Shown here: positions 4,064-51,328 of the stretch, piece after piece | Layout: each line of letters begins with the position of its first letter | Position numbering within the stretch: position 1 is the stretch's first letter | Assembly: GCA_008632985.1 (NCBI GenBank) | Contig: QPGO01000030.1 | Location: 372,001-423,754, forward strand | Length of the DNA stretch: 51,754 nt | Source of the DNA: Psammoneis japonica | Taxonomy: Eukaryota | Reading direction: 5' to 3' | Translations under genes and position numbers: made by a program | The notes under the pieces: generated by a model | Databases searched by the model: none | What the model was told of the DNA's origin: nothing | What the model saw: the letters and a program-made list of their open reading frames with translations, nothing else

Positions 4064-4500
4064 CAGGCCAACTGATTGCAAAGTTTTCTGCAGCAATCAG
4101 ATTGCAGTCAGTCGATTGCATCACTGTGGACAGCAATTGGCCAACTGCAATTGCACAGCGATTGCGCGGTCTGATGAACAGATCAATCGCCCCACCGGCC
4201 AGGCGCACCCCCCGTGCAGGGGCTCTCTCTGCGCAAGAGCGCTCTCTGCGCAAGAGCGCTCTCTGCGCAAGAGCGCTCTCTGCGCAAGAGTGCACTCCGC
4301 GCAGGAGAAATCGAGCAATTTCACTGATTTCAGCTGACAAAAGAGCTTGAATTTCGATTGCAATCGATTGCAACAGTGACTGTGATTGCGACCTCGGCTC
4401 TTTCCCGACAATCAGGTCATTGCAATCGAGTTTGCAATTGCGATTGCAGTCAAAGTGAGGCTGGCTGATTGCAATTGATCCCAGCAATTAGTTGACGCTG
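4064..4500. mobile_element. hAT-like MITE with degenerate TIRs and 8-bp TSD
   Basis: Left end CAG-GCCAACTGATTGC versus reverse complement of right end CAGCGTCAACTAATTGC. Flanks TTCGCACG (4056-4063) and TTTGCACA (4501-4508). Many internal (G)ATTGCAAT(C) motifs. Confidence 0.65.
4225..4290 (+). repeat. 17-bp tandem repeat (CTCTCTGCGCAAGAGCG) x~4 at MITE centre
   Basis: Directly visible tandem copies, each nearly self-complementary. Confidence 0.9.
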
Positions 4501-4583
4501 TTTGCACATGCTTTCATCTCTCTTGCTGTCACCACACATGGACAGTCACAGCAATCTCAACCCCGTCCTCTTTCTTCCAACAG

Positions 4584-5150
4584 AATTGCTGAACATGGAA
4601 GGCAATCTTGTTTCTGGCACTCTGCCGGAAGTGATGAAAGATTTGACAAGCTTGAGCAGGTCGATTATCAGTCTCCCGAAATTTCGTGCACCAATTGATC
4701 ACGTCTGCCCTTGACTGGCATTTGCCTTGTTCGTTCGTTCGTTCGTTTGTTTGTCCGTTCGTTTGTTCCTTGACAACCCAAGAATGCGTCTCGTTTGAAA
4801 GCAACAAGTTGTGTGGTCCCCTTTTTGATTTTGTCATGGAACAGAAGGAAGCAGGTGTTGGAAAAGAACAAGTTCTGCACCATCCTGCATTTGCTCTTTC
4901 CAATGCCCCTGATTCTCATTCAATTTCAATCGAAATCATGGCTGAGAGGACCCACTTCACTGGAACGCTCCCGGCTGATCTGCGCTTGTCGTCAAACTTG
5001 GGTGACGCTCCACTTTGGTTGCAGCTTTGTCAATGGAGTGAGCCTTTCTCATCTGCATGCGTGTGTTTGCCCGTGTCTGCGTCAGCCAAGGTAAACACTG
5101 CTGGAGCAAATCTTGTTGGTGCAGACAATCCCAACTGAAATGGGCCTTGT
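4584..5150 (+). pseudogene. Leucine-rich-repeat gene relic with 72-nt exons
   Basis: Exons 4584-4655 (LLNMEGNLVSGTLPEVMKDLTSL), 4783-4854 (CVSFESNKLCGPLFDFV) and 4930-5001 (EIMAERTHFTGTLPADLRLSSNL) are each 72 nt. A fourth, frameshifted exon has TIPTEMGL. Splice sites are damaged: GC donor at 4656, AA acceptor at 4928-4929. Confidence 0.75.
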
Positions 5151-5755
5151 TTTTGCAACCTGGGTGCGTTTCGATTTACACGCATTGCAGCAGATGGCAG
5201 ACAATGCTTTTTGTTGCCATCCATTGTCATCGGCATCAGTTTTCATCATCAGAGAGAGAATGTTGTGCCCGTTGTCTTGGACCCTCCACAACAGACACCG
5301 TAAAAATTTTCCAGCGATGCAGGCGATGCCATTTAAAGAGTGATGGCGCGAGCAGCAAAGAAGCAAGAGATCCCAGCGGTCCAGACACACAACTTGTTGG
5401 GACTTGGGGAGCACTGGCTTTTTCACATGCGTTCGTGCTCACTCTCTCTCTCTCTGTCCAAGACGTTGCTTGCTCATGACTCTGCCAATTTCGAGATGAC
5501 AATGTTCTCTGTTTAAAGACAGGAACAAAGACATTGTTTTGACGAGAATTCCAAATGACGGGGCAGTGTCGCCAAGAGGAGCAGTTTGCATGACATCGGA
5601 GGGAAAAGAAAAGGGCCACTTCCTGAGCTCACATGCTTCGGGAACACTGCCGTTTCAGTTGGAATCCGCAGCATTTGCGTGGCCTCCAGTGCAATGCACT
5701 CGAGCTGCCGTTTGACCTGCTGTTCTGCGGTTTCAGCGGGAATCCATGGAATCCA

Positions 5756-5882
5756 CGTGGCTTCCAGCACAAAAGAGATTCTGAATTGCTGGAGTGAAAT
5801 GGTCTGCCATTTCAGCAGGAATCTGTGGAAATGACGTGGCTTCCAGCACAAAAGATTTTGAATTGCTGGAGTGAAACGGTCA
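5756..5882 (+). repeat. Local direct duplication (~47-49 bp, ~80-bp offset)
   Basis: CGTGGCTTCCAGCACAAAAGA(GA)TT(C/T)TGAATTGCTGGAGTGAAA(T/C)GGTC occurs at ~5756 and ~5836. Confidence 0.8.
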
Positions 5883-7029
5883 CTGCAAATGTCAGTTGAG
5901 ACAGGAATTCATAGAATCTGGTGCAAGTTCCATGGAAGAAGACTGCTCATGCCCGCAAATTTCCCGTGACTGCTCATTCAGTCTCATCATTCATTGCTCT
6001 CACAATTTGCTCAAGAGACGCACTTCGCCCCATTGCTTCACAGCATTCATGATGCTCACTTTTTTCTCCAAGTTCGCAAACCGCAAAGCTGTGGTTGAAG
6101 ATGGTGCATCTGAAGCGAAGCGCACGATGTGTCCTCACGTCCGCAGCATGGCAAAAACCCTGAAGCTTTCTTTGAAGAAGTTCCTCTGCATGCCGTGAAC
6201 CGAGCAAGTCAAGATGATTTTGGAGTTTGAATCCCTCGCCACTGCGATCGAGAACAAGGTCAACAGCTTGAAGGAGGCAGCTTCGACTCTGCGCGAACAG
6301 GCTCAGAGCAAACCTTAGACTCTGAGCCTGTGCCGCGTGCATGCCACTGTGTGGAGCTGGATCGCATGATCGATGAGCCAGCATGAAAGAAGGCAAGAAG
6401 AGGCTTGCGAACATCCAGCCCAAGATTGCGACATTTCGTGATGTGCTCGAGAAGCAGCAAGAGATTCTCAAGTGTCCTCAGATGACATTGCAGGAGGTTC
6501 GGATTGCTTGGCTGTGACCTCCATGAGGATTGTTCCCTTTCGGAACCCGCTGATCTCTCCAAGACCATGATGACAAAAGAGGAACACCAAGAGTGCATTG
6601 CTCGCATCTTGCTCATCAACATGGAGACACCCTCTTTGAAGTGCAAAGCCTTGGACATGTTGGAGTCAGCTCCGTCGGCTGATGACAAGGGATGATGCAG
6701 AGGAAGGCGCAGATGGCACCCATGAAGGATCTGACCCCCCCCCCCCCCCCCCCCACCAAGAAGGCCAAGATGGAAGGCAACTGGATTCCATGAACAAGGA
6801 GACCAAGGCAGAGTGCATTTTTCATTGGGCAGCATCTGGCAAAGGCAGCAACAGTGCAGCGCATTGTTCTGCAAGAAATCCAGAAAGTGCAACGGCAATC
6901 TTCCACAGCATCAAACAGTTTCACAGGCTCAGCGCATCAGTCCAACTGCATCAGCTCGGCTTGCCTTTGGTGCAGTGGGAAATGAGAGGGACTGACAACT
7001 CGCTGTGAATGGAGTGCACTCATTAAAAA

Positions 7030-8880
7030 GCAAGTGTCATCAGAAAGAAAATGTCAATTCCCACGTCACTGTTGTCATCCAGTTGCGCAAACAGATCTTT
7101 TCTCCAAGGATCAAATTTGGATTGTTTCGGTGCCAAGTGTGCTGGGGCAGGTGCTTTGGAACAATCAGTGACTGTGGTGTTGTGGAAGATGTTGGTGTGG
7201 GGAAATGTGTGGTGGGAGAGGTGCGCAAAGCGCGCTTGGGGATGGAGAGAAAAAGTGTGGGCCCAAAGTGCAGACAGACGGCTGAGGTGAGGAGTTGTCA
7301 GCAAGGGTGCCGGTGGGGTGGTGAAGCAGCTGATCTCGGTGCGAAGAGAGATGGTGGGAGAGAGCACAGCCAAAGTTGAGGCCAAGGATTTGGGAGGCCC
7401 AGAGTTGGGGTGTGGCTGCATGGCAAGATGAGCCAAAACGGTCTGGGGAGAGCAGTTTCCAGGCGTGTTGGAGTGGGTGAGGAGGTCGGAAGGGGCAAGC
7501 AGTGAGTCAGTGAAGGCAGAGAAGGATGCTTGAGAGTTGGAGAAGGAAGATGGGTTTGTCCAGGGTGGCTTGGAGGAAGGGGTGGGACAGAGGCGGATGA
7601 TGAAGAGGAGGAGCTGAAGAAAAAAACGTGAAATGGCATCCAATGCCACCCAGGTGGTCGAATGTGAATGGGAGAAGGAAGAGGCCAGCTTGGTTGATGG
7701 CGTCAATGACATCAGAGCTGGGGGCGGATTGTGCAGAGTGACCAAGAAGCTTGTCCCATGTGCTCTGCTGAGGTGAACCTTGTTTGATGGGTTTTCAGGG
7801 ATGGGTGAGCCAGGTGCAGGAAGCAGGGGAGCTGGTGGTGCGGTGACATCAATGGCCAAGAAGTGATGAGCAGATTGGGCGTTGGGTGGTGTGGAGCCAG
7901 GAGCAAGTTGTGCGCCGACGTCGGCGGGGCATTTGAGGGGGTGGTCAACTGGGAGACCGGCTGGTTCAAGGTGCACTTGTTGACAGGAGAGGCACAGGCC
8001 GCAAAGGTGGCCTGGAGTGTCAATGACAGTGCAGATGGTGTCATGGATGTGGTTGGACAGCGGCTTTTGTGCATTTTGGAGCATGCGAAGGCGTGATCTC
8101 TGAAGGGGTCAGGGCGGGTGTGGCCATGTGTGGACAGTCATGTTGGAGTGGAGCGGCAGAGATTGTTGGGAGGCGCAGCTTGCGGAGGAGAAGGAGTGCA
8201 AAAATGTGTGAATGGAGTCAGTTGGAGATGGAGGATTGGGAGAGAGAGTGCAGGCAAAGGCTTGTTGGAGGGGATGGAAGGGATGGAAGGGCTGGTTGTG
8301 TGGAAGGATCAGCCAGGATCAGAGGAAGGGTGTTGGTTTTGTGGTGATGTGGATGAAGGCATTGCACGAGACCGTGCAGGTTGTGGTGTTCAATGGCATG
8401 CTTGAGGGAGGCAAAGGAGGAAGAGTCGAAACGGAGGAGAATGGGGGTGCAGTGACGGAAGATGCGGCAGAGGGAGAGGGTGGAGCGCGGGTTAGACCAT
8501 GAGCCAAGAGCAGCAGAACGGCTTGGAGGGAGATGAAAGATGTCGCCACCGGTGAGTGGGATGCCATGCTTGGTGTAGCGCATTGATCTTGTGAGCAAAG
8601 CAACAAGAGCTGGGATGGCGACAGCGGAGATGTCGCGACATCTGACACCACCCAAAGAAACGGGTGGGTTGGCAATGAGTTTGGCGGCTGAAGGGAAGGG
8701 GGCGGAGTGTTGAGTAAGGTGGGCAAGGAAACGCAAGGAATGGCGGATGATTTTGTCAACAAAAGGTGATGCCCATTGGAAAGGAGGGGTTGAGAAGTCG
8801 TTGGAGTGCATGAGGTTGAAACATGCATCAGCCGCGAGAAGGTGGTGTTGCCGGAGGAGCCGCCGCCGCGCTTGCGAATC
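7030..8880 (-). mobile_element. 5'-truncated, decayed non-LTR retrotransposon of the restriction-like-endonuclease group (CRE/R2-like)
   Basis: Minus-strand fragments occur in canonical order: post-RT PVSLGGVRCRD..AIPA, knuckle CPH...DPFRDHAFAC, SNHIHD (HNxxRD-like), VHLEP, CPADV (RPAD-like), LAIDVT, LLPFTFDHLGGIG. Multiple frameshifts. Ends approximate. Confidence 0.75.
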
Positions 8881-9207
8881 TTGAATCATCTCCCGTGTGG
8901 CCTGTCAGTCGTTACCGCGCCGCACATGCGAAATCAGATGAGGACTCGTGTGCCCAACAGTACCTTTCTTTCTTATTTATCTTCTCCTCGCTCATTCGCA
9001 TCCGCTCATCCTCATCTACTTTTGAGTTTTAAGCCACAGCATTTGGTTGCTAAGAGAGAGTGCCTACGACTTAAATTTTGCAGCTAAGACCTTTTTGGGT
9101 AGAGGCCACTCCCAGCTTGGGAGGTCTGTAACAAAAGTACCGTGCGGGTAAGTTCCATTGAAACATCGGGGGTCCTCTCTGGGGAACGTGCTAGTTTGAC
9201 ATTATGT

Positions 9208-17961: not shown

Positions 17962-18915
17962 CTACTTCTTCCGTTTCCTTCTCTTCTTCTTGTTCTTTTT
18001 CTTCTTGCTCCCATACAATCCATTGTCTTTCATTTCGGCTTCAATACGTCGAGCGCGATCAATTGATTCCTGTCGTCTTTGCATGTTTGCTTCTCGCTGT
18101 TCCTGAATGTCCTTTATCCTTTGTGATTCTTGTTCTTTCTGTGCCTGCCAGGCTTTCATACACGTTTCTTCCATATGTTTTGGGATCTGCACCCGCTCGG
18201 CTCCTTTTCCATTTTCGCTGTAGAAATTTTCAAGAATAATGCAAGCCGCCTGTGAGTCCAGTGTTCCGTGTAACCACGTATCAGGATTTGCACTGTGGAC
18301 TCGTGCGGCAGCTTCCTTCGTTGTGTACCTCTCGTCCCAGAGATAGAGTGGCACATCGGGTCCTAGTCTCGCCATTGCTAAGCAAGCAACAGCTGATGCG
18401 AAATCTCGCGTCACAAGCGATTGCGGGGCTTCGGTACCATTTTTATGAAGCGGCAGACCAATTATGATCTGCTTCGCTTGTTCCGAGACGCAGTAGTCGA
18501 CAACTTTCTGAGCAACCGTGGTTGAATTTTTGTCCGCCAATATCGCTATTGGTTTTGGTTCATATCCCACTGTTACAGCTACTCCAGTTCTTGAAAGCCC
18601 ATAGTCCACTCCTACTGACTTTATACCCAAGAGTATGCAATTTTGCGTCACGGACGCTGCCGCGGAGATGACATCGTCGTTGACACTCCCCATCGCTCGA
18701 CCGGCGAGTCGATCAGATACTGTTCTCGATTCTGAGCTGTTGTCACTTCCCTGATCCACGCCTGTAGATTTGGATCCCCACAATATCCATGGTTTGTATG
18801 CACCAAGCAAGGGTCTTAACGCAAACATTGGCCTTTGGGGTTGCACATTGAAGCCAGAAGCGGCGCCGCAAGCGGCTGCCAGTATGAAACTGCAGCAAAC
18901 ACCAAAACTCAGCAT
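17962..18915 (-). CDS. yqgF: YqgF/RuvX RNase H-like pre-16S rRNA nuclease, likely plastid-targeted
   Basis: Motifs VGVDYGLSRTGVA, IIIGLPLHKNGTE, LWDERYTTKEA and LDSQAACIILE. A signal peptide ending ASG|F is followed by a transit-like stretch. Confidence 0.85.
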   Translation of the reverse strand: MLSFGVCCSFILAAACGAASGFNVQPQRPMFALRPLLGAYKPWILWGSKSTGVDQGSDNSSESRTVSDRLAGRAMGSVNDDVISAAASVTQNCILLGIKSVGVDYGLSRTGVAVTVGYEPKPIAILADKNSTTVAQKVVDYCVSEQAKQIIIGLPLHKNGTEAPQSLVTRDFASAVACLAMARLGPDVPLYLWDERYTTKEAAARVHSANPDTWLHGTLDSQAACIILENFYSENGKGAERVQIPKHMEETCMKAWQAQKEQESQRIKDIQEQREANMQRRQESIDRARRIEAEMKDNGLYGSKKKKNKKKRRKRKK

Positions 18916-19279
18916 GATTCCAAGCCGGCCTTCCAAGCCGATATCTTGGACGTCTTTGTACTACGGTACAATGACAACCTTACCCTATTACAAGTACGAG
19001 TAGGATTTCCCTCTGCTCGCATCCGTAATGATGCAGATTGAACCAAATACTTGGATTGAATGTTGTCTAGTAGAGTGGTCCAGTGATCATCGCGGTGCGG
19101 CGTCGCGTGGAACGCATGCGCGGGCCCGCCATTTTTCTGCCGATTCCGTGATTCCGTCCGCGCGCTTTTGTTTCTGCGCCACACTTTTTCGCCGGCGTCA
19201 GCGTCGCCCCCATCTTCTTGTGCATTGGTATGATTGTTGTTGCTACTGTTGCCGCTTGTGTCGTGAAGGTTGTGAAAAC

Positions 19280-38067: not shown

Positions 38068-41000
38068 CTATATAACACTGTATTTGTGACCTCCACTGCC
38101 GAGGCCACGCGTCCCGACTCTCAGTGTCTCTTCGTTGAGTAAACGACGAATTTCAACCACACACTTCTGAAGGATCGTCTCGCTGGTGGCTTCTAAATGA
38201 AGATAGAGCTTTCTTTCTCCCTCTCCTGGAGTTCGATTCGGACCAAAGTATTCGCCTTTCAATGTGACCGCAGTCTGGAACTCGTCCTGAAGACGCGAAG
38301 TTGTTTCTTTCTGCGTAACTTTCCATCTAGCTTCTCTTGGATACTCGTTGATTTCAAACTCCTGAACAAAGTGATTGGGCCCCATCTGAATGGCACGACC
38401 AAGAGTCCCATCTGTCTCGTCGCCATCCTTTGCCATACCGGCCTTCTTCATAATAGCATCGTGCATTCCCGGCAGAGAAAGCAGCTGTGCCGAGAGCTTC
38501 GCCCCTAGTAGCGGCGCGTCACTCTTCGTACCGGATTCCTCGGCGTCAGTGGTGTCATCCATTTTTCCAGCTGAAACTCCTGACTTGGTGTTATCAAGGA
38601 CTGGATCTTCGTCTTCTGGATCAAGGAGTCCCGCCTCAATCAGAGCTTGCCGCTTCTCGAGGCGAGCAAGCTTTTGCGCGTCATTCATTTCAGAAGAATC
38701 GTACGAGTATCCTTTTCCTTTGAACCCCGACCCAGCCCACTTCGCTTCTCCCTTCTTCACTTTCTCCTTGAAGGAGTCCGAGAGTTCCTTGAGAGCTGGA
38801 GCAATATTTTCGGACTGACCAGCTTCGCTAAGAGCGCGAACAATGCTTGGGGCGAACTTTGCTTCGTCAGTCGAATTCACAAAGGTATACGCGACGCCCT
38901 TGTTTGACGCTCGTCCAGTCCTTCCAACCCTGTGGACATAATCTTCCAAATGGTTTGGAGAAGAATAGTTGATCACACAAACACACGACGGAACATCTAA
39001 ACCGCGCCCCGCCACGCTAGTGGCAACCAACACATTCGGACCATCGTTTCGCTTGAAATCAGATATGGTCGAATCACGATCTTCCTGTTCTTTACCTCCA
39101 TGCAGTGAAAGGGAGGGGTACCCGCACCGAAGGAGCTGCTCAAACACATTGTCACATCGCACCTGCGTATCGACAAAAACAATGACTTTCTTGGCTTCGT
39201 CAACGTGATCTCCAAGCAGCTGTAGGAGACGCAAGAATTTTTCGTCCTCTTCGACCACCTCGGCGTATTGGGTAATTGAATCAGAAGCTACCGAACGGCC
39301 TCCCACAATAACCTCTATAGGATATTTGAGAGACTTGCGGGCGAGACTTTCAACCGATTTTGGAAATGTTGCGGAGAATAGCACAGTTTGGCGGTCTGGT
39401 CGAACTGCAGCCAGAATGGCTCCAATCTGCGGGGCAAAGCCCATGTCAAACATTCTGTAGTTGGAGCGAACAAGTGGAGTGATGTGAGTGCTTTCTCATG
39501 CACATGGAAAGAATCGGCAAATTCATGACTTACCTGTCAGCTTCGTCCATAACGACGTATGTTACGCGATGTAACGAAAGAATTTTACCAGACTGCATGG
39601 TTAGAATATCAATCATTCTACCCGGAGTTGCCACAGCAATGTGCGTTCCCCGCTTCAAGTCAGCAATCTGTTCTGCAACTGCGGTTCCTCCATACACCGC
39701 CGTCGACCTGTTGAGAAACACAAGAAAGCAGAGGATTAGTCACAACTGAACAAACGAAAGCAAAGGAAAGAAGACAAAGAGCAGCGTCGGTCTCGAAGTA
39801 TGTCGACTAGTTCAAGGTTCGCACGCCCATGAGCCGACACCAACTTCCATGCATCAAGAAAAGAACGGCTGCCTCGTTAGAGATTTACGCTCCTTCATCG
39901 GCCTATGATTCAAAATGTTTCACTCACTTTATACCCAAATGCTTAGCAAAAACTTTACAAACGGAATGGATCTGGGCTGCGAGTTCTCGTGCAGGAGCAA
40001 GGATGAGGCCGATGGGTCCAGATTCGTGCGGTCCCAGCGGGGGCTGATCGCCGATGTGCCTCAACATTGGGAGGAGATAGGCCAGAGTCTTCCCACTGCC
40101 TGTTTTGGCTATTCCAATCACATCCCGTCCAGCCATTATGCAAGGTAGGCACTGTGCCTGAACGGGATACGGTGCTTCGATTCCTTGTTTCGTCATGATA
40201 CTAATGATTTTCTCAGAAAGTGCACACTCTTGAAACGTAGATACAGGCGCCGGCGCGCCCTGACCCCGGACTTTGACCTTGAGCTTCCCTCGGCGATCAG
40301 CAACTTCGTCACTCGAAAGATTCGCCAGCGATCGAGGAACAATATACAGGTTCTTCTTGAACGGAATGTAATCCATCTTTGAATGGTCTACTGCCTTTAG
40401 TTCCTTTTTCTTGTTTAGCTCTGCAAGCACTTCAAGTGCATCAGGCGCGGCCATTGCAGCATCAAGATTCCGTTCAGCCTCCTCCATGACGCCACCCTCT
40501 GCATCGTTGTACAACCTTCCGGTATCCGGAGCAGAGGCAGCTGCAGCAGCTTCTCTGGCTGCCTCTGCTTCCCGCTCAAGTTGCTTCAGTCGTTCTTCCC
40601 GCCTATGCTTCTCACTCTTGACTTCTGCTGCTAGCTGCGCTGGTCGATTTGTGCCTGCATTCTCTTCTTCTTCTGCAGCAAGCGGCCCCGGTGCTGATTT
40701 TAGGGCCTCGATCAGAGCTTGTCTGGCCTTTCCTCGTCTTCATCCTCTGGCTCACTGGATGACGCAGCATGAGCGTCGCTTTCCCAGTCACTAGCAGTGA
40801 AAAGAGAATCTGGATTTTTCATGGTACCGGAGCTTGGTGTAAACTGAGCGAGTTGCTCGGGAGTAATGACCCCGCCAGAAACAGGTGACGGAATCGGTGG
40901 ATGAGATGCCATATTCGTCCTCATCATGGACCCTGAAACATTCACAGATAGCCTAAGCGCCGGTATGCCATCTGCTTGCTGGCTTGTGACACTTCCCATT

Positions 41001-41455
41001 TCTCCGCTTTGCAGCTTATCCATAAATGTGTCTAGTGCATCATCCATGGTCACGTCAGACACACCAAAAGGCGGAGTTGATTCGGAGGGACCAGCGTCCC
41101 ACCGCTTCGTTCTTCGCCGCTTACGCGGCTGATCTACCTGTTTTTCCTGTCCCCATGTGTCTTCTCCTGTTCCTTCATCGTCGTCGTCATTGTCTAAGTC
41201 AAACCCCATAGCTCGACTTCCTCTCTTTCGCGGCCGTTCCTCGACTTCTTCATCGTTGTCTCGGTCATCCTGAAAGGGATTGTCCTCCACTTTGCGCTTC
41301 GGTCTTCTTTTGCTTTCCTTCTTCTTGCCTCCCAACGAAAGCGAAACTTTCACAGTGGGAGCGGTAGGAGGTACTGGTGACGTTTGCTTCTGCCTCTTTC
41401 TCCAGGCCTCGAGACGTTTGCGTTTGCGCTCAGCAGCAGAATCCGCGTCCGTCAT
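38068..41455 (-). CDS. DDX46: DEAD-box RNA helicase DDX46/Prp5
   Basis: [10 protein letters not shown]-terminus, [51 protein letters not shown] and C-terminal EINEYP...LYLHLE. Two introns. One apparent 1-nt deletion at ~40729. Confidence 0.92.
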
Positions 41456-41460
41456 GGCCA

Positions 41461-41823
41461 GTCAGTCGGTCCGCTTGAAGCTGAACAAATTGTACGGTAG
41501 GCGAGCTTTCGGTCGTTTCAATCTTCTTTCAACGACTTCGATAAGGACGAAGATGCCACCCAGTATGGTATTTCTCTCTGTCTCAACGACTCCTTCCAGA
41601 GTTGAGGAGCGGAGTCAGTCGGTCGTTTTATGTTGCGCTTTCGTCAGTCGGTCCGCTTGAAGCTGAACAAATTGTACGGTAGGCGAGCTTTCGGTCGTTT
41701 CAATCTTCTTTCAACGACTTCGATAAGGACGAAGATGCCACCCAGTATGGTATTTCTCTCTGTCTCAACGACTCCTTCCAGAGTTGAGGAGGAGTCAGTC
41801 GGTCGTTTTATGTTGCGCTTTCG
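41461..41823. repeat. Tandem duplication (182/180 bp) immediately upstream of the DDX46 start codon
   Basis: Copies start at 41461 and 41643 (GTCAGTCGGTCCGCTTGAAG...) and differ by a 2-nt indel. Confidence 0.92.
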
Positions 41824-41859
41824 TTGCTGGTCTCTCGTCGCGAGGAGTCGCGATAGTAC

Positions 41860-44800
41860 CATGTTGTTTGGTGGTTTGGGGTCGCTGCTCGCTGCTCGCT
41901 CGCGCGTTGCGCGCAGGATGGGGCGGGTCTGCCATTCTTCCAGAGCCCCGTGGTTCTTGTCACGAGATGTCGGCATGTGGGAAGAATGAAAGAGGTGGCC
42001 GCCGGAGGCGGCCCAGAAGAATAAACTGAAAAGGAGAAAGGAAAAGAGAGAGAGGAAAAGAAAGGAAAAAGGAGAAAAACAAGAGAAGACGTTGTGGGGC
42101 TGTCAACTTGCGGCCCTTGGCTAGGCTTCTGCCCGCAAAGCAGCTTGTCTGTGACTTGAGGTGCTGCGGTTTTACACGCTTGGCAGCAAAGCTCCCACAG
42201 CATGCTGGAGAACTGCAGAGTTGTGCCAGTCTTTGGCACAGCTTGACAGCGGCATCTTTTGTGAGGAGCGCTTGCTGCCAGCCCATCATGGCTTTTTGGG
42301 CAGCTTGTTTTCCAAGCCTTGCCCCACCAGCTTGGTGGCCACTGCCGCGGATCTGTGTCTTCTTTGTTCTCCAAAATTCAGTGCACACTTTGGCGGGTTT
42401 GGCCCCAGCGCTGTGTCCAAACAATTCTCTGAAGTTTCCAAGTGAGAAAACGCAGTGTCGTCCTCTTTAAAAGATCTTCACAAAGATCCCTGGCAACAAG
42501 CACTGGCCTTCCCCACCCATGCTGTCAGAAGTGCCTGCCTTGACAAATTCACAGCATCTCTCCCAAAGCATCTGTGGATGCTGTGCCCAAATTTTGGCCT
42601 CATGCGTCACAAAATCTTGAGAGAATTTGCGAGATTCACCCCATCACGTGCCGCCACCTTTGGATTTCCAGTGCAGCCATGGCTTCTGCAGCAGGCTGTT
42701 AACAAACATGCAAGCAAGTTCCCACTGGGACCTCAAATTGACCTGCAGCCTTCTTCATTCCGGCTGCACCCCTGCTTGAATTCTGGGTGGCCAGCTGAGC
42801 AAAACCTGGCTCTGTCTGTGTTTCTCAGTTCATGTTTCTGGCTTTGTCACATGCGGTGCAAAGTGCCCTCAGGAAAATGCTTGTGGTTGTGCTTGCCCAA
42901 TGCTGTCCCATCAGCCAGTGCCTTGTGGCGCAGCCCAATGCTTTGCTTGCCAGCTCTCCACTGCAAGCTCCTTGTGGCTGGTCTGGTGTCTTCAAGAAGC
43001 AAACCACACCCCATTTTTGCCCAAAGAGGGGGGGAAATCAGACCGATGCACATGCCTGAAAGACACCCTGTGTCATCAGGAGGTTCCACGATGAAAACGA
43101 GTGAGACGAATGAACAACACCACATCAGCTGCAACGTGTAAAGTGGGAGCGAGATTTTGCGAGCGGTTTTCTGTTGTCTTGGTTGTTGCGAGTGTTGCGC
43201 GAAGCCTTGTTGATGTCGAATCTATGCCACAACATGCTGACTTTGTACGCCACAAAACTTCAAAAATTTGTTGCTTTTGCACTGGGTCTACGCCACTGGG
43301 CGCATGTAGAATCTTATATAAAAATCACGTACGCCACTGTGGTACAAAATTTGTGTACACCCTGAACCATTCTACGCCACTAGTGACGTAGGCTCTGGTG
43401 TGTTTTTTACACTTCTGACTTGAATTTTTCCGTGTCGTGCAAGGGTTCCTTTCGGGAGGAGCCTGCGACACATCTGGCAACGAAAAAAGCAGACCATCAG
43501 AAGTCCCCATCTCCAGTGCTGGTGTGACCCTGTAGATTGGCTGCGGCGATGGGACCGACATTTATTTCAGGAGCATGGGTGGCATCACAGGGCGGGGCTC
43601 TGTGAGACGGTGAAGAGCCCTGGCCTGTGAAATTTTTTTGTCAGTGCAGCCTTGAAGAGTGGCCGTGCATGGCAGCAACATGAGCTGGATGTTTTGGGGG
43701 AGCACATCTCACCAGCCCCACCCAGCATGCAGAAAACAGCAGCTGCCAGCCTGCAACTGTGTGACAGCAGCTTTGATGCCACACCCACAGAAGTTGTGGT
43801 TGTTGGATTGCTCTGTGACAGCTCTGGAATGGCTTGCGAGCACTGGCTGTTTTTGGCCAGTGGCTCTGTGAAGCAAGTGCTCCCCCCCACCCTGCTGGCC
43901 AATGGTGGTTGGTGTGCTCTGTGGTCTGTGGCAGCTCTGCACTCTCCACCATGAGTCTCCTCTGATTGCATGCTTTCTGTCTCTCTGCAGAGAGGCTCCT
44001 CTTGTGGAATTTGGGCACACAGCACACACAACAAGAAAAAAAAACAACACATGACAACTCATCATCTCATCACAATCCTGTTGACACCAGCACAGCTTTG
44101 TTGCAGCACCGTCCAGCTGCCATTGTCAAATTTGACGCACAAGCTTGGTGCACCATTGGAGCAGAGAAAATTGTGGCTGCAGTCTTGCTCACAATTTTGT
44201 TGTCCAAGATTGACAACAAAGAGCCAGCACAAAATCTTGTCACTTTTTTGGGTGGCACTGATGATGTGCACTGTTGTGCTGCTGCCATCTCTGCTCCCAT
44301 CTGCTGCACCTTGCAAGCAATGTTGTGGAAGAATGTGCAAGCATCTTTTTGTTGCACCCCAGTGATGGCATTGCTGTTGTTTTTTTGTGGTGAAGGGATT
44401 GTTTTGGTCATTTTTGTGCTCACGACTCAGGTGCATGTGAGCTTGCTGGGGGCTCGCCTGACATTGTTCACATGGAAACAGTGCTCCTGTGGTGACAACA
44501 AAATGAGAAGCACCTTTGATGGTGCCAGTGGCATGATTTGTGCTGTTGATCATTGTGACAGCACCATCACTGCACAAATGACCTGGTGCTGAGGGTTTCA
44601 GCAAAAAACCTGCTGCCCAACATCTGCTGCTTTCAACCAACCCCAGTCTGGAGCACCACACAGCCTGCATGCAACCCGGCTGGCACAACATCTGCTGTGA
44701 TTCCACGACAGCCTCTTCAGCAGACAGAGAAGGCAAGCAAAGCAGAAAATTGTTGCACAATGGCTTGCAGTGGCAGAAAGCAGGTGGGCCCCACTTCACC

Positions 44801-45745
44801 AGCTTTGTTTTGTGGTGCACACAGCCAGCCAGGGGGGGATGCCAAATTGCATCTCACAACATGACAAAGTGCAAAATGCAAAAGACAACTGCCACACTTC
44901 TGCCACCTGCCATGCTGTGGACATGCACCAAAAGAAACACTGACAACTTGCCAACCACTTTCCACTTCAGTTCATTGCTTCTTCTTTTTCTTTGCTCCTC
45001 ACATCAGCCCCCCACCTCTCCAGGAGGACCTCTCCAGGACAAGGCTCTTCCTCTGCCCCCCCCTTCTCAGTGGCACATGCTTGTGACATGCAGACACAAC
45101 ACTGTGTGCCTTCATGAAAAGGGAGATGCTGAAGGGCACTTGTGTGGGTTCAAACCCCAGGCTTCTGTGTTTGTTTTGGTGTGTCCAGCTCCACTGCACC
45201 TGTCTGGCTTCTTGTGCATGGGTGCATTGACTGGTCTGTGACATTTCATTCTGTGCATTGAGCACACCTTGGCTCAGCAAAACAAAGGTGTGCATCCATC
45301 ATTGGCCTTGTTGCTGATGCTGAGGACTGGGTGGAGTTGCTGCTGTCAGCATTGCTGCCAGCTTGTCTGCTGGGTGTGTTGGCATTGTCAGACTTTTTCC
45401 AGCAAAACAAATGGCAGCCATCCAAAGTGCACCCCCAACACTGTCTCCCACACCTCTGACATGGCAGTCAACCCTTGCAAGAGTGTTGCGACAATGACGG
45501 GAAAGAAATGACTCGAGAGCAGAGACCACCAATCACTCTGGAAAACAGCAAGTCAAGGTGGGAGCCAAACAGGACACACAGGACAAAGAGCAAGGAAGTG
45601 TGCTGTGACATGTTTGTCAAGGAACAGAGAACCCACTCCATCTTCTCATGGATGAAAAAGGCTGAAAAGGGGCTCAATCTGAAGAAAACTCACAAGGACA
45701 TCAAAGTTCACCACCCAGCAAGTTTTTGCTCTTCAATGACGATGT
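41860..45745. other. TpA- and CpG-depleted hypermutated block 2 (unidentified decayed elements)
   Basis: No TA seen in 43565-45744, and CG is very rare there. TG/CA-rich. Tyr-free Cys/His-rich ORFs in all frames. Confidence 0.9.
43223..43398. repeat. TACGCCAC subterminal-type array ending in a near-palindrome; probable DNA transposon end
   Basis: TA(C/T)GCCAC at 43223, 43246, 43289, 43330, 43373. The last copy forms TACGCCAC-TA-GTGACGTA followed by GGCTCTGG. Confidence 0.65.
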
Positions 45746-46090
45746 AATCCATTTTGCGCCAATGGGCCAATCCTCTTCTTGTTGAAATGGCCCATGGTGA
45801 CACAACACAACAATGCTGACTGATCCACATTTTTCTTCCCCCATGCCCCATTTCGCCTTTCCGTGTTCTTGCTTGGTTATTCCAGATTTTGAAGGACCGA
45901 AATGTGCACACACACACGCACACATACACACACAGACAACGAAACATGCGCAAAGCCAAGAGAAGAGACGAGAAGAGGTGCAATGCTGTAATCTGTAATC
46001 TAACCTTACCGTTTCGCAAAGACCGATACGCAATCCATTTTTTACCTTTTTACCTACACCTTCTTGATTGACTTTCCAGGTCAACATAAA

Positions 46091-47150
46091 ATGACAAACT
46101 CTCTCTGGCCTCTGGGCGTTGCAATTTATCTTGGTGGAACTGTCGGCCAGGCCCTCGGGGCCAACCTGCAGCGAAAATCCTTGACAACTGAAATGGAACG
46201 GGCGGAAAAAGATCCAACTACCAACCAAAAGACAAGGCCCAGCAGAAAATGTGGGTGTTCGGAGTCGCACTGCTCGTGTTCTCTGGGATCTTTATGAGCT
46301 TTGCTTGTTTTTGCCAGTCAGACACTCCTCTCTCCTCTGCAGCTCTTTCTTTTGTCGCGAATGCTGTCTTTGCCAATTTGATCAACCACGAAGCGTTTGG
46401 ATGGCTCGGATGGGACGGAATCTATCTGCTGCTTGTTGTTCTTGGCGTCACCATGGCAATCGTGAGCGCTCCAAAACACACTGAAAGCTACACCAACGAT
46501 GAAATGTTGTTGCTCATGCATCAACCTGGCTTTATTGCCTTTTGGTATGTGGCCGGCTCCCTAATTTGCATCATGTATCTGGTACGAAGGTGCATTTTAT
46601 CAATGGGAGATACTTTGCGCCCCTGGCATGCCACTGTTCTCAACATGAGTTATGGAGCCATTGCAGGCGCCTTTGGAGGAATCAATGTTACCTTGACTAA
46701 GACCTTGTTCTCTTTAATTGTCGGGCAGTTTAAAGAGGGAGGCGTTTTGGGGATCTTGTTTTCTCCGTTGTTATGGGCAACGTCGATTGTGTTGGTGGGA
46801 ACCTATGTCTTGCAAATTGTCGTGACGGTGTCGGGGCTCGAAGAGGCAAGTGCCATTATTGTTATTTCGGCCAATGCGGTGACGGCGGAAGTGACCGCAG
46901 CGACGGGGGGATTTTGTATTTTCAGGACTATGAACGGTTTGATCCTTTTACTTGGTTCCTGTTTGTCGGTGGCAATGCGATCGCTATCGTCAGTGTCATT
47001 GGATTATCTCATCTCCGTGTGCGTGATGTACATGCTAGCAAGAGAGCTAATAGTATTATTCCACTGGATATGGAAGGAGGCGAGGTGTCGCTGCTTCCCA
47101 AGGACGCTGATTATTCGTACGGTGCGACAGTTGCGCCGAGCAGTGGCTGA
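46091..47150 (+). CDS. NIPA-like magnesium transporter (DMT superfamily), frameshifted in this sequence
   Basis: GQALGANLQRKS, MWVFGVALL, FASQTLLSPLQLF (shifted frame), GAFGGINVTLTK, QIVVTVSGL and GGILYFQDY. Needs about four single-base insertions, all in short homopolymers. Confidence 0.75.
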
Positions 47151-47744
47151 TTAGTCAAGAATGATTATCTGTCTTCGTTTTTCTGCATGTTGACAATCAC
47201 ACGGCAGTTTTGAGCCACTTGAAGGTGCTATGGTAAATTCAAACACGTTAGGATTTCTGTTTGGGTATTCAAAAAGTGCATGAACTAGTCTACACTGTGT
47301 ATTGTTTCGAACCTCATCCCCAGAACTAGGCGAGGGGCAAATATCTCCCAGTCGAAGCGATGGTGATGACGAGTCTTTCATTTCTGCGAAGAGTAACGTA
47401 TCTGACAGTCGTCCAATAGTACCTTTTGAACGCAACGACGAACCACCCACGGAGGTTAACGAGGAGGAGGCGGTGGGTCGGGATTGCCATTACGAATAAT
47501 AGCTCTAAGCTAGATAGCATTCATTACCCTACGAATAAAAGCTACTTTCCATCTGAACGTCTAGTACCTTTTGAAATGCTGAGTGCCATTACAAACGATA
47601 GCTCCAAACTAGATCATATTCCTTGCGAATAGAAGCTACTTTCCATCCAATCCACGAACAAATCGGAGACCCACCACAAACGTTCAAGCAAATTCGAACA
47701 TCGTGAGCAGTACTGTCGGATTCTCTAGGCAGCTGGCCTAGAGC

Positions 47745-50684
47745 TTACATACTGGTGGATCCAAAATGCTGTACAACTTTCAAGAGGGAGGTTGTCTTCA
47801 TGTTGAGACTGGGGGTGCCATCATCAAAATCAACCATGAAGGTGTTGCCATTGACCTTTCGCGCAAGTTTGCCTCGCAAGCCCTGATACTTTGGTTTGTG
47901 CTGATACGTGTCCTTCACTTGAATAACGTCGCCCACCAAAGCAGTGATTCCTTGATATTCAACGAGGTCTTCGGCTGGAGCTTGGCTCGCTTCCGACTCC
48001 TCCTCGGCGGAAATTTGCGCATCTGCTTTTGAATCTTCTTCGGCGTCTGGCGCAGGCTCTACTTCTTTCACGTCTTCGGATGCTTCATCCTCCTCCGATT
48101 CCTCGGCAGCGTCAATGGAGGGCACTGGCACTTCCTCTTGGGCATCGGACGTGGACTTTTCGTCGCTTCCAACTTCGCCTTGATTTTCGGCGCCTACTTC
48201 TGAGTCTGCCATGGACGCATCTTTTTTGGGGAAATCGCTGCCAACTTCTGGACCCGTCATGTCGGAGATTTCGGTGGACAAACGAGGAGAGGTGCTGAGT
48301 TCTTCCCCATCTTTGGAGCCTTCCGCAGCTAAACGAGGAGGGTCCATTTGCATTTCATGCTTGGGTTCGGGTTCGTCGCCTGCCTGTGCGGGTTCACTCT
48401 CCACTCGGCCCGGACTGAAAAAGTAGTCCCACAAGGCGAAACGAGAACGACGGCTGGTCGCAGTCGTTTCACTGTCGAGGACCGCATTGCTGTCGACCGC
48501 ATCATCATCAGCATTGACCAGATTGTTGGAATCGGGTGCGTCCGCATCCATATCCACGTCGGGTTCCTCGTGCGATGACGACACTTCGGGCGCATTCGCG
48601 TCCATGCACGCTGTTGTTTCGGGTGCGGCATCGCTCGTCAAGATGGTCGAAGTTGCGGTTGTGACGGGAGACTCGGGTGAGGTTACTGTCGTTGGAACGA
48701 TCCCCTCGGGCGAGGCCTGCTCCTTGGGATTGTCGAGGATCACGGGCGAAGTTGCGGTCGTGACGGGAGACTCGGGTGAGGTTACTGTCGTTACAACGAT
48801 CCCCTCGGGCGAGGCATGCTCCTTGGGATTGTCGGGGTCCGAATCGTTCGTCAAGACAGGCGAAGTTGCGGTTGGGGTGGGCGCCTCGGGCGAAGTTACT
48901 GTCGTTACAACGATTCCCTCGGGCGACGCATGCTCCTTGGGATTGTCGGGGGAGGCTTGCTCCTTGGGAGTACCGAATTCATTCTCTTCCTCCTCTTTGG
49001 GATTGGCTGTAGGTCCCGAAGGGGAACGAGGCGGAAACAATGACACGGGCTGCATTCCAGGCACTTCGGTGCCTTCCACAGCAGTTTTCCGGCGCCGATG
49101 TGCTTCAGCTGCATCCATTTGTTGTTGAGCAACGGATTGGGGCACAGAATTGATTTGTTCTGAAAGCTCCCGAGTTGAAGCTCGCTGACTCTCAAGGAGA
49201 GTCTGCGTCATCTGCTTGAGCTGCGCCGACAAATCATCACTATTACCATTTCCACCGCTTTCATTGTTATGCTGGACATTGCTCTGGTGCATCGAGTTTA
49301 CGTAGGAGTAAGTTGCCCCTTCTGTCACGTTGACGAGGTGCACCACAGGGGCTGCTGCCGGAGGAGCTTCTCCGGCTGTGTGTTGCCGCTGAAGGAGTGC
49401 CAGAACTTGCTGCAAAGGCATATTATTGTTGTTATCTTGCCCATTTGCAAGCTGTGACATGCAACAATAATGCAACGTTTGTTAGATACATGCACAATGA
49501 CGAGGTCTGCAAGCAAGGAACCCCGTGGACGACTTACAGAAAGAGGCGCTCCGACGCCCGGGGCACGCGGCTGCCCTGCGTTGCCATTATTCGACTGTTA
49601 AAAATTTTGAAACGAAAGACAATCATCATGTGAGAGGAAAGGGAATACATATTGAACAACGAGGCCGTCGGAATCAAATCTCCCGACGATTCCTACTCGC
49701 TGTGTACTTTGTACTTACGCCAGTATTCTGCTATCACAAGAATTTACACACAAAAGAGACAATCAGATACATGCACAATGACGAGGTCGGCAAGCGAGGA
49801 ACCCTGTGGAAGACTCACCGAAAGACGCGCTCCGGCGCCCGGGGCAGGCGGCTGCCCGGCGTCGCCAGTACTCGGCTGTATTACAAGAAGACATCATCAT
49901 GTGAGAGGAAAGGGAATGAACAACGAGGCGGTCGGAATCAAATCTCCCGACGATTCCTACGCGCTGTGTACTTACGCCAGTATTCTGCTATCACAAGAAT
50001 TTACACACAAAAGAGACAATCAGATACATGCACAATGACGAGGTCGGTAAGCGAGGAACCCTGTGGAAGACTCACCGAAAGACGCGCTCCGGCGCCCGGG
50101 GCAGGCGGCTGCCCGGCGTCGCCAGTACTCGGCTGTATTACAAGAAGACAATCATCATGTGAGAGGGAAGGGAATACATATTATTGAACAACGAGGCCAT
50201 CGGAATCAAATCTCCCGACGATTCCAATACGCTGTGTACTTCGTACTTACGCCAGTATTCGGCTATTTTAAAGATTAAAACAAAAGAGACAATCATTTTG
50301 TGAGAGGAAAGGGAATACATATTGAACAACGAGGCCGGCGGCGGCCGGCGGAATTGAATTGCAATCGATAGGCACAATATACACGCAGCACACTCACATT
50401 CATGCGGGCCATGCATTTCTCCAATTTTGCTTCCATCCTCTTTTGATCCCTTTTCTTCAAAGCCTTGGCTTTGCTTTCTTCTTTGCGTCGCTTGGCCTCG
50501 GCTTCTTTCTGCTCTTGGCGTTGCTTGCGCAATTCCTCCACACTTATTCCCAATGACGCGGCTTGTTGCTTGTCAGCCAATTCCTGTTTCTCTTCCTCCT
50601 CTTCCTTTTCCCTTTGGCGTTGTTGGCCTTCGCTTTCCTATTGTACTCTCTCTTTTCCTCTTCACTTTCGAATTTCTTCGGCAT
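47745..50684 (-). CDS. Unknown protein: charged coiled-coil exon 1, acidic/Thr-Pro repeats and C-terminal KOW/SH3-like domain
   Basis: Exon 1 50684-50398 (MPKKFESEEEKREY..., one apparent 1-nt deletion). Donor GTGAGT at 50397, CTAAC branch point and CACAG acceptor at 49452, phase-0 join MARMN|LANGQD. C-terminus VGDVIQVKD..YQGLRGK..FMVDFDDG. Confidence 0.6.
48640..48970 (-). repeat. Coding repeats DNPKE(Q/H)ASPEGIV(V/P)TTVTSPE x3 plus a partial copy
   Basis: Visible at both DNA and protein level within the 576-aa ORF. Confidence 0.85.
49484..50336. repeat. Tandem array of ~257-281 bp units (3 plus partial), intronic
   Basis: AGATACATGCACAATGACGAGGTC starts at 49484, 49765 and 50022. A partial fourth unit re-enters via AGACAATCA microhomology at ~50287. 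Confidence 0.9.
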
Positions 50685-50870: not shown

Positions 50871-51328
50871 GACGGACGTACGACAGACGCGCGTTTCTCG
50901 CGCTCGGCCGGCGCCGGCCCGGCTTGACAGAGATACTCCATTGGATTGACATACCAACAATACCAATTTGGTATTTTCTTATGTCAGTCCCGGTATTTTT
51001 GGTGTCAACCCTGCCAACCCGACGGACGTACGACAGACGCGCGTTTCTCGCGCTCGGCCGGCGCCGGCCCGGCTTGACAGAGATACTCTATTGGATTGAC
51101 ATACCAACAATACCAAATTTGGTATTTTGCTTATGTCAGTCCCGGTATTTTTGGTAGTCAACCCTGCCAACCCGACGGACGTACGACAGACGCGCGTTTC
51201 TCGCGCTCGGCCGGCGCCGGCCCGGCTTGACAGAGATACTCTATTGGATTGACATACCAACAATACCAAATTTGGTATTTTGCTTATGTCAGTCCCGGTA
51301 TTTTTGGTAGTCAACCCTGCCAACCCGA
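50871..51328. repeat. Three tandem ~150-153 bp palindrome-rich units
   Basis: GACGGACGTACGACAGACG starts at 50871, 51021 and 51174. Each unit has GGCCGGCGCCGGCC and AATACCAA(A)TTTGGTATT palindromes. Confidence 0.93.

Follow-up and report, generated by a model that had tools for sequence, protein, structure and literature searches.

A gene-free block nearly without TpA and with little CpG in a diatom-like alga: probable TpA editing combined with methylated-CpG decay

Introduction

How can more than 2 kb of DNA lie between two genes without a single TA dinucleotide and with hardly any CG? This question is raised by a block, here called block 2, in a stretch of 51,754 nucleotides of Psammoneis japonica DNA. 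The whole of this stretch was analysed and is referred to as the window. Targeted A:T>G:C hypermutation at TpA has so far been measured in one organism only, Bigelowiella natans, in a 2026 preprint (Mettrop et al., bioRxiv 10.64898/2026.01.13.699255). According to the available text of that preprint, silent integrated viral DNA of B. natans mutates about 1000-fold faster, 230 of 231 mutations in the hypermutable regions were A>G or T>C, all of them at TpA, and 124 TpA-depleted clusters, mostly unannotated, were counted genome-wide. Here, the composition, the limits and the surroundings of block 2 were analysed. We consider it probable that the block is silent DNA in which TpA was edited as in Bigelowiella and methylated CpG decayed.

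Results

TpA and CpG are channelled into TpG and CpA

The part of block 2 that was erased of TA is the following.

43566-45744: sub-block 2b, the erased core, with 0 TA, 14 CG and a Rho(TG+CA) of 1.93

The TA-free gap measured 2182 bp, was flanked by TA at 43563 and 45745 and was the longest of the window, the runner-up (1469 bp) lying inside a companion block, block 1. Within 43566-45744, no TA was found against ∼81-88 expected (from the background frequency, or 80.6 when adjusted for composition). Given a background TA frequency of 0.0404 per position, the chance of finding none over 2182 bp is about 5e-39. The 14 CG compare with 135 expected from the background frequency or 147 after adjustment for composition (O/E ∼0.10), and one CG-free gap spans 783 bp. 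These counts bear out the preliminary description of this DNA, which had reported about 2.2 kb without TA and with CG nearly absent. The TA-free, CG-poor sequence of the block is confirmed at the level of the assembly. Over the whole range that had been described, 41858-45744, TA numbered 22 against 141 expected and CG 76 against 267.

The missing dinucleotides had a counterpart. In 43566-45744 the O/E values of TG and CA were 1.99 and 1.88, compared with 1.08 and 1.06 in the background, and TG+CA came to 526 (266 TG and 260 CA) against ∼290 from background frequencies. The surplus of ∼236 roughly matches the shortfall of ∼209 in TA+CG. The YpR total (TA+CG+TG+CA) was 24.8% in sub-block 2b, 22.6% in sub-block 2a and 23.2% in block 1, compared with 24.2% in non-ORF background and 23.6% in all background. 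Since this sum is unchanged while TG/CA is doubled, TA and CG have been channelled into TG/CA by transitions, as had been proposed when both self-complementary YpR steps were said to have collapsed. Net GC of block 2 did not change (50.8% vs ∼49%). The ratio TA/(TG+CA) in 43566-45744 was below 0.0057 (95% bound; 0 beside 526) vs 0.30 in the background; at equilibrium, these dinucleotide counts would imply a TA-destroying rate more than ∼175-fold above the back-mutation rate.

When every TA and 90% of CG were converted in silico to TG/CA, the trinucleotide correlation with the block rose from 0.42-0.43 to 0.90-0.91. The same conversion of mononucleotide-shuffled background gave an equally good fit (r 0.917), indicating that the simulation supports conversion and is uninformative on the origin of the DNA; a 'host-likeness' of the block read from this simulation was therefore rejected. 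RY 7-mer spectra did not discriminate as to the origin of the block DNA. Strand-coordinated runs of TG or CA in the block were not above background (z -2.3 vs -1.5 to -2.0), so the footprint of a processive single-strand editor is absent.

The depletion is interrupted by an internal island and ends abruptly

Block 2 had been drawn as one domain from 41860 to 45745. It is depleted overall, but the depletion is not uniform, because a central segment keeps CG and the core of that segment keeps TA.

41858-42029: left margin, GC 60.5%, with 15 CG (15.8 expected) and 1 TA (4.0 expected)
42015-42085, + strand: purine-only, A/G-rich low-complexity tract where joint depletion sets in on the left (TRF rows 42028-42077)
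42030-43043: sub-block 2a, with 4 TA (35 expected, O/E 0.07), 20 CG (72 expected, O/E 0.29) and a Rho(TG+CA) of 1.57
43044-43608: central CpG-keeping segment, with 28 CG (36 expected) and 17 TA (22 expected)
43223-43408, + strand: TA-retaining core of the central segment, with 13 TA (9 expected)

Whether the left margin belongs to the block is doubtful. Since these 172 bp have normal CG and only marginally low TA, joint depletion begins near 42030. The right edge, on the other hand, is abrupt and common to both dinucleotides, CG reappearing at 45740 and TA at 45745. The sharp edges claimed before are upheld, and some hundreds of bp separate the depletion from either flanking gene.

The retained TA and CG co-locate in block 2 (Spearman r 0.55 in 100-bp bins, p=3e-4; 0.76 in 200-bp bins), whereas in the background they are anticorrelated (r -0.28 and -0.37, respectively). 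An island of 186-565 bp in mid-block retains both, a feature that the preliminary description did not contain. Four exact TACGCCAC boxes, all on the + strand, occur in its TA-retaining core at 43246, 43289, 43330 and 43373, with a spacing of 41-43 bp. They make up 4 of the 5 exact copies on both strands of the whole window, and one-mismatch copies are located at 43223 (+) and 43383 (-). Pairs of TACGCCAC were found at >117 loci in viral contigs, which is the chance level for two 8-mers.

Block 2 had been taken to be older or more heavily methylated, and the ratio of the two losses had been put forward as a clock. Both ideas are conjectural. For the clock, the O/E values of three sub-blocks imply TA-loss/CG-loss rate ratios of ∼3.7, 2.2 and >1.9, and TA is already saturated.

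Block 2 lies between divergent genes and next to an intact duplication

About 3.7 kb (42030-45744) without genes separates two divergently oriented flanking genes.

38068-41461, - strand: DDX46/PRP5-like DEAD-box helicase gene in three long ORFs, its start facing the block
41461-41824: 182-bp tandem duplication adjoining the block on the left
46192-47154, + strand: membrane-protein gene, weakly NIPA-like, ∼450 bp to the right of the block

The right-flank gene had been called a NIPA gene. A Pfam match to Mg_trans_NIPA does exist, but it is weak (E=0.0011, 18.7 bits) and below the 26.2-bit cut-off. Diatoms accounted for 6 of 6 named homologues of the flanking genes. In the explanation that we favor, the flanking genes are read as housekeeping genes and the setting as the nuclear genome of a diatom-like alga. 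When the NIPA-like flank was searched in metagenome contigs, 51 pattern matches and 0 confirmed ones were obtained, with no orthologous locus. No deaminase was found among the scanned long ORFs of the window.

The copies of the 182-bp duplication differ by 0 substitutions and a single 2-bp indel, with TA and CG intact. No repeat partner of block 2 was detected within the window, either by blastn or in the purine/pyrimidine alphabet, and the latter revealed no LTRs or TIRs in the window. Fungal-type RIP, or another duplication-triggered process, is thus extremely unlikely as the cause. Block 2 does resemble RIP in that context-specific transition hypermutation is limited, with sharp edges, to non-genic or selfish DNA. 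However, the direction is opposite: RIP changes C>T at CpA and gains TpA, whereas block 2 loses TpA (O/E 0.00) and gains CpA (1.88) and TpG (1.99). Moreover, RIP needs a duplicate, while block 2 has no partner in the window and the perfect tandem duplication beside it is untouched.

Miscalling of modified bases is a very unlikely cause of the block

We were also interested in whether the pattern could be an artefact of sequencing or base calling, in which a heavily modified domain (5mC at CG and a modification at TA) was misread as TG/CA. TA and CG, the steps affected, are the two self-complementary ones among the YpR steps and could be modified symmetrically, and the extent is domain-like, as a modification domain would give. 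In addition, the runs with the stretch number only three, from one sample and one study (none RNA among those listed), and may be the assembly's own data. On the other hand, the loss is complete (0 TA vs ∼81-88), so that under an artefact the modification would have to be stoichiometric and the miscall 100% consistent on either strand. The flanking-gene frames are long and intact (1072, 772 and 578 codons), indicating that the consensus is good. When an 8-kb stretch, the block making up half of it, was sampled in 31-letter words, a fraction of 0.85 of these words was present in run X1. No DNA modification specific to TA is known to us from diatoms. Furthermore, in the available text of the preprint, the B. 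natans signature was measured in Illumina mutation-accumulation lines. Taken together, an artefact is very unlikely.

No gene, homologue or foreign signature was found in block 2

One open frame in the erased core was of interest.

43966-44592, + strand: frame of 208 codons without a stop, in which a weak purine/pyrimidine signal of period 3 resembles that of coding sequence (∼43950-44550)

Its RY score was 3.15 per 100 codons, real genes spanning 0.5-4.6, and by this sequence measure the frame may be what is left of an ancestral gene. A HMMER search with the frame (+) against 1.84 billion representatives gave 1 hit (P0121, E=5e-7), which was judged to be chance because it arises from a 17-residue motif that the target contains in more than 20 copies. 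In metagenome contigs the frame gave 99 pattern matches and in viral contigs 2, 0 being confirmed in either. Pfam searches with 37 stop-to-stop frames (30 + 7) of blocks 1 and 2 at E<=1 gave noise, the best value being E=0.023. A match to EsV_1_7_cys (E=0.03) was likewise dismissed as noise, the frame being cysteine-rich through the TG excess. Rfam at gathering score yielded 0 matches over the whole window, the single match over 41400-46200 being meaningless (E=0.8), and a tRNA scan yielded 0. Signs of a foreign origin of block 2 were thus not found in Pfam, the representatives, the metagenome and viral contigs or the window repeats.

These searches bear on the view that the composition is native or selected, meaning that the block, as foreign DNA or as a non-coding RNA template, avoids TA and CG by selection and was not mutated in place. 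The period-3 signal, which hints at a former gene, would agree with such an origin. Joint suppression of CpG and UpA is known in RNA viruses and expressed RNAs, according to the accessible part of PMC3829696. Nevertheless, neither a viral nor another protein signature was found in the block. The 0 TA over 2.2 kb also goes far past any suppression that we know of in natural genomes.

A second block shows the same TA loss and suggests its direction

Further evidence on this point came from the companion block.

about 3000-8900: companion block 1, with 25 TA (215 expected, O/E 0.07) and 224 CG (397 expected, O/E 0.59)

The preliminary description had stated that the loss recurs in unrelated sequence, and this was corroborated: block 1 has the same TA loss, and no DNA similarity between blocks 1 and 2 was found by blastn or in the purine/pyrimidine alphabet. 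TA loss in a second, unrelated block of the same 52 kb favors a process over a quirk of one element and argues against selected composition. At the margin of block 1, a 41-bp tandem repeat in 3 copies has two positions at which a single copy reads TG and the remaining two read TA. Inside block 1, the 2 copies of a 79-bp repeat differ by CG/CA, TG/CG and CA/TG. Such TA/TG and CG/CA/TG differences among repeat copies point to change in place, and we regard a native or selected composition as quite unlikely. The polarised events in the window number only 2, both at block 1. No homologous or unmutated copy of block 2 was found, so the direction within block 2 itself is not polarised. Co-location of TA and CG was weak in block 1 (r 0.18-0.29, not significant), and its Rho(TG+CA) fell just short of the strict threshold in 3 of 6 windows (1.50, 1.51 and 1.48).

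Discussion

Two context-specific transition processes would explain block 2

Block 2 combines an extreme composition with a conserved YpR total, defined boundaries and a lack of genes. Two transition processes would together produce such DNA. The first would turn TpA into TpG/CpA, that is, A:T to G:C only where A follows T, on either strand. The candidate enzyme is a DNA-acting adenine deaminase of the ADAT2 type, as the authors of the B. natans preprint propose in its available text (bioRxiv 10.64898/2026.01.13.699255). The second would turn CpG into TpG/CpA through deamination of 5-methylcytosine. CpG decay is to be expected, since silent transposon-like DNA of diatoms is methylated at CG by way of DNMT5a; the accessible part of PMC9998398 describes CG methylation in diatoms as DNMT5a-dependent and directed at TEs. 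As methylation decay predicts, the CpG deficit (O/E 0.10 in 2b and 0.29 in 2a) is accompanied by a matching TpG/CpA excess. Both processes are apparently aimed at one chromatin domain, since they stop jointly at 45740/45745, spare ∼400 bp beside each flanking gene and spare the internal island. In this reading the DNA would be methylated and of foreign origin, and the activity may be ongoing.

A different chemistry could leave a like footprint. One dual-specificity ADAT2-like deaminase might attack A preceded by T as well as C followed by G, or TpA might be lost via a modified thymine, such as the 5-hydroxymethyluracil that a TET/JBP-type enzyme produces, with mispairing and T>C. 5-Hydroxymethyluracil in dinoflagellates prefers TpA, in line with the latter variant. 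The co-location of retained TA and CG in block 2 and the ends of both losses, <=5 bp apart at the right edge, would fit a single activity, and the preprint, in its available text, refers to reports of ADAT2 enzymes that use A as well as C. In block 1, however, TA is 93% gone and CG only ∼41%, with no co-variation, indicating that the two losses are separable. The contexts are also mirror-opposed, the 5' neighbour counting for A and the 3' neighbour for C, and CG methylation of silent diatom DNA already accounts for the CpG loss (PMC9998398, accessible part). A different chemistry therefore appears unlikely, though less so than the alternatives discussed above.

If TpA editing with methylated-CpG decay is the true cause, the TpA process occurs in two or more distant branches of the SAR supergroup. 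One of them would then be a genetically tractable group (CRISPR, DNMT5 knock-outs and mutation-accumulation lines), in which the editor is findable. The TpA process would also be linked for the first time to CpG loss, and thereby probably to DNA methylation and heterochromatin. TA+CG channelled into TG/CA with the YpR total kept could serve in genome scans as a signature of silent foreign DNA in algae. Annotation should be cautious with such blocks: TAA and TAG are impossible without TA, and false ORFs therefore run long in each of the six frames.

More tentatively, it is quite possible, if short of probable, that diatoms have an active, chromatin-domain-targeted defence by TpA>TpG/CpA DNA editing that is spatially coupled to CG methylation. 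Such a 'reverse-RIP' would be widespread across the SAR supergroup or older, rather than a chlorarachniophyte oddity, and blocks of this kind would be its saturated end products. The island with its four phased TACGCCAC boxes would then be a putative protein-bound element shielded from editing and methylation.

Comparison with known systems

Animal ADAR/APOBEC-type editing shares with block 2 the A>G change, the preference for a 5' U/T and, as far as the sources go, the targeting of foreign or repeated nucleic acid. ADAR acts on RNA, however, and the genome is not edited, whereas the change in block 2 is fixed in DNA, on both strands and without strand runs. We know of no ADAR outside animals.

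The CpG decay of DNMT5-methylated diatom transposons is similar to that of block 2, which has a CpG O/E of 0.09-0.29, a TpG/CpA excess and no genes. In block 2 TpA is lost as well; PMC9998398, in its accessible part, is silent on TpA and contains 0 mentions of deamination. A full-text search found no literature joining diatoms with TpA depletion or hypermutation, and CpG and diatoms are never mentioned in the available text of the B. natans preprint (bioRxiv 10.64898/2026.01.13.699255).

Compared with the B. natans regions as described in that text, block 2 differs in several respects. Its host is a diatom-like stramenopile and not a rhizarian. It is saturated (0 TA), while the measured B. natans viral regions retain 3.3% and 9.2% TpA. 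It shows an additional tenfold CpG loss. Finally, in contrast to the viral inserts of B. natans, no viral or TE signature was found in it. In other respects the two agree: TpA is depleted with a compensating gain of CpA+TpG over several consecutive kb on both strands, and the affected DNA is silent or unannotated. By the B. natans cluster criteria, whose thresholds are quantiles of the B. natans genome and not of the genome analysed here, block 2 counts as a cluster in 4 of 4 windows (42001, 43001, 44001 and 45001, with values of 0.09/1.55, 0.29/1.61, 0.00/2.04 and 0.08/1.76, respectively). Among the systems compared, TpA hypermutation in B. natans, as presented in the available text, is the closest precedent for block 2.

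Depletion of TA and CG in block 2

The composition of block 2, the gene-free stretch at 41858-45744, was compared with the rest of the window (window G+C 49%; background observed/expected ratio, o/e, 0.61 for TA and 1.05 for CG). The longest TA-free gap of the window, 2182 bp between the TA at 43563 and the TA at 45745, has P ~5e-39 under the background TA frequency. The erased core inside this gap (43566-45744) contained 14 CG, against 135 expected from the background frequency or 147 from local composition, and its TG and CA o/e values were 1.99 and 1.88 (background 1.08 and 1.06). With 0 TA and 14 CG in this core, the preliminary description of a depleted block holds; over the full range, TA numbered 22 (141 expected) and CG 76 (267 expected). 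As a compositional domain, block 2 is both genuine and striking, and a base-calling artefact at modified bases is a very improbable source of it. The domain is internally non-uniform.

Segments of block 2, with TA and CG counts as observed/expected
41858-42029: left margin; TA 1/4, CG 15/16; GC-rich, CG normal, TA marginally short
42015-42085: purine-only A/G tract of ~70 nt, exactly at the left onset of joint TA/CG depletion
42030-43043: sub-block 2a; TA 4/35, CG 20/72; joint depletion
43044-43608: central segment (island); TA 17/22, CG 28/36; CG kept
43223-43408: core of the central segment; TA 13/9; TA kept
43566-45744: sub-block 2b, the erased core; TA 0, CG 14

At the right edge, the first CG was found at 45740 and the first TA at 45745. 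On its + strand, the TA-retaining core of the island carries the TACGCCAC box four times without mismatch (43246, 43289, 43330 and 43373; spacing 41-43 bp). Two one-mismatch copies are also present (43223 and 43383), and only 5 exact copies exist on both strands of the whole window. The boxes fall in the sole patch of the block where TA and CG are both kept. In its layout, the array looks like a set of putative protein-binding sites, such as iterons or an enhancer or boundary element. Kept TA and kept CG coincided in block 2 (Spearman r 0.55 in 100-bp bins and 0.76 in 200-bp bins); they were anticorrelated in the background, and in block 1, the companion TA-depleted stretch at 3000-8900, their correlation was weak and non-significant. 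A single deaminase of dual specificity, or a thymine modification, could produce the same footprint, and this is considered unlikely.

Probable conversion of TA and CG to TG and CA

As a share of all dinucleotides, pyrimidine-purine (YpR) steps (TA, CG, TG and CA taken together) reached 24.8% for the erased core, 22.6% for sub-block 2a and 23.2% for block 1, compared with 24.2% outside long ORFs and 23.6% overall in the background. The YpR share is therefore normal in depleted DNA, indicating that the step count was kept and only step identity was altered, as expected from transitions at these two steps, TA and CG. The earlier claim of a collapse to TG/CA was thus borne out, and it appears quite improbable that TA and CG were avoided natively or under selection. 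When all TA and 90% of CG in background sequence were turned into TG/CA, the trinucleotide correlation with the core rose from 0.42-0.43 to 0.90-0.91. A mononucleotide-shuffled background gave 0.917 as control, so the simulation supports conversion but is silent on the origin of the DNA. TG and CA strand runs in block 2 were not above background. Because TA is absent, neither TAA nor TAG is possible on either strand, and open frames run long in every one of the six phases of the block as a by-product of TA loss.

Block 1 showed TA o/e 0.07 and CG o/e 0.59. Its + strand has a marked excess of G (0.294) over C (0.221), tandem repeats of 17 bp (4225-4307) and 79 bp (5724-5881) are present, and no protein family was found in it. 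In a 41-bp tandem repeat of ~3 copies at its left margin (2070-2190), two sites have TG in one copy and TA in the other two. Between the two copies of the 79-bp repeat, the differences are CG/CA, TG/CG and CA/TG, together with one other C/T, two complex ones and one indel. The block 1 repeat differences, few in number, follow the predicted direction. The erased core holds 0 TA against 526 TG+CA, each one transition from TA; at equilibrium, these counts would mean that the rate of TA destruction exceeds that of TA regeneration by more than ~175-fold, and an active or very recent process fits this imbalance better than an old relic. The implied ratio of TA-loss to CG-loss rates, from o/e values, was ~3.7 in block 1, 2.2 in sub-block 2a and above 1.9 in sub-block 2b, too little for the clock that had been proposed alongside a possibly greater age or methylation of block 2, TA being saturated.

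Flanking genes and neighbourhood

Block 2 fills a divergent intergenic space of ~4.7 kb, unusually long in a window otherwise gene-dense with long exons, between a DDX46/PRP5-like helicase gene (left, minus strand) and a membrane-protein gene whose NIPA match is below threshold (right). About 400 bp beside each gene is free of depletion. Directly left of the block, upstream of the DDX46-like gene, a 182-bp tandem duplication (41461-41824) keeps TA and CG intact; its copies differ by one 2-bp indel only, so the duplication is very recent. RIP-like mutation triggered by duplication would be expected to act on such copies, yet they escaped depletion, and the direction of change also contradicts it, making this explanation extremely improbable.

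The organism-named homologues of the window's myosin (Bacillariaceae sp. and Thalassiosira exigua, 54-55% identity each) and helicase (Ditylum and Attheya, 74% each; two Epithemia proteins, 69%) were all from diatoms. The top helicase match overall was 81% identical, and no match was identical. The window thus comes from a diatom or a near relative missing from the protein collection searched, and B. natans is excluded as its source. Two further features were observed in the window.

17962-18960 (-): RuvX/YqgF-type Holliday-junction-resolvase-like domain within a eukaryotic gene
47745-49481 (-): 578-codon ORF with repeated ...NPKE(H/Q)ASPEGIV.TTVTSPE... units, for which no Pfam family was found

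A RuvX/YqgF-type domain in a eukaryotic gene is typical of plastid-bearing lineages, and its presence fits an algal origin. Downstream, 100-260 bp tandem repeats occur in several families (49481-50337 and 50871-51328).

Search for the ancestry of the block

Block 2 showed no similarity to block 1 or the remaining window, either by blastn or in a transition-blind purine/pyrimidine alphabet. Pfam assigned no family to any of 37 frames of blocks 1 and 2, and no RNA family or tRNA was found at the block. A weak, coding-like period-3 signal at ~43950-44550 was in phase with the frames 43966-44592 (+) and 44070-44426 (-). The plus frame had one match among 1.84 billion protein representatives, which was rejected as a homologue since it was caused by a short motif many times repeated in the target; searches of metagenome and viral contigs yielded no relatives. 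At 44559-44864 (+), the EsV-1-7 cysteine-rich motif matched below threshold (E=0.03; 14.6 bits, cut-off 25 bits), and this match probably reflects the surplus of Cys codons generated by the TG excess, not a relic of a phaeovirus.

Comparison with Bigelowiella natans

According to a preprint (bioRxiv 10.64898/2026.01.13.699255, dated 2026-04-14), 302 nuclear mutations arose in mutation-accumulation lines of B. natans, and 231 of them lie in two silent viral inserts, where the mutation rate is ~1000-fold that of the remaining genome; 230 of the 231 were A>G or T>C, all 230 at TpA. The TpA-depleted clusters there are mostly without annotation and enriched in transposon and viral domains, and the authors proposed an ADAT2-like deaminase as the editor. 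By the cluster thresholds of that study, block 2 passed in 4/4 1-kb windows; block 1 passed for TpA in 6/6 and narrowly missed CpA+TpG in 3. The general process suggested in the preliminary description is plausible, and a precedent for it exists. The words CpG, diatom and Phaeodactylum are absent from the preprint, and a full-text literature search found nothing joining diatoms with TpA depletion or hypermutation. In diatoms, transposon methylation at CG runs through DNMT5a (PMC9998398).

The reading that we favour with moderate confidence is that silent, probably once-foreign DNA would be kept in a repressed chromatin domain, where TA would be removed by TpA-directed A:T>G:C editing of the Bigelowiella kind and CG by deamination of 5-methylcytosine. 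Both would be limited to the same domain, sparing the promoter-proximal flanks and a protein-bound or unmethylated island. Block 2 has two features that are not described for the B. natans footprint: CpG is reduced tenfold, and an island inside the block is protected. On the present analysis, block 2 is probably best filed with the hypermutation footprint so far described in one other alga, B. natans. TpA hypermutation of this kind was described only in 2026, and in one alga; block 2 would add a diatom-like genome to it.
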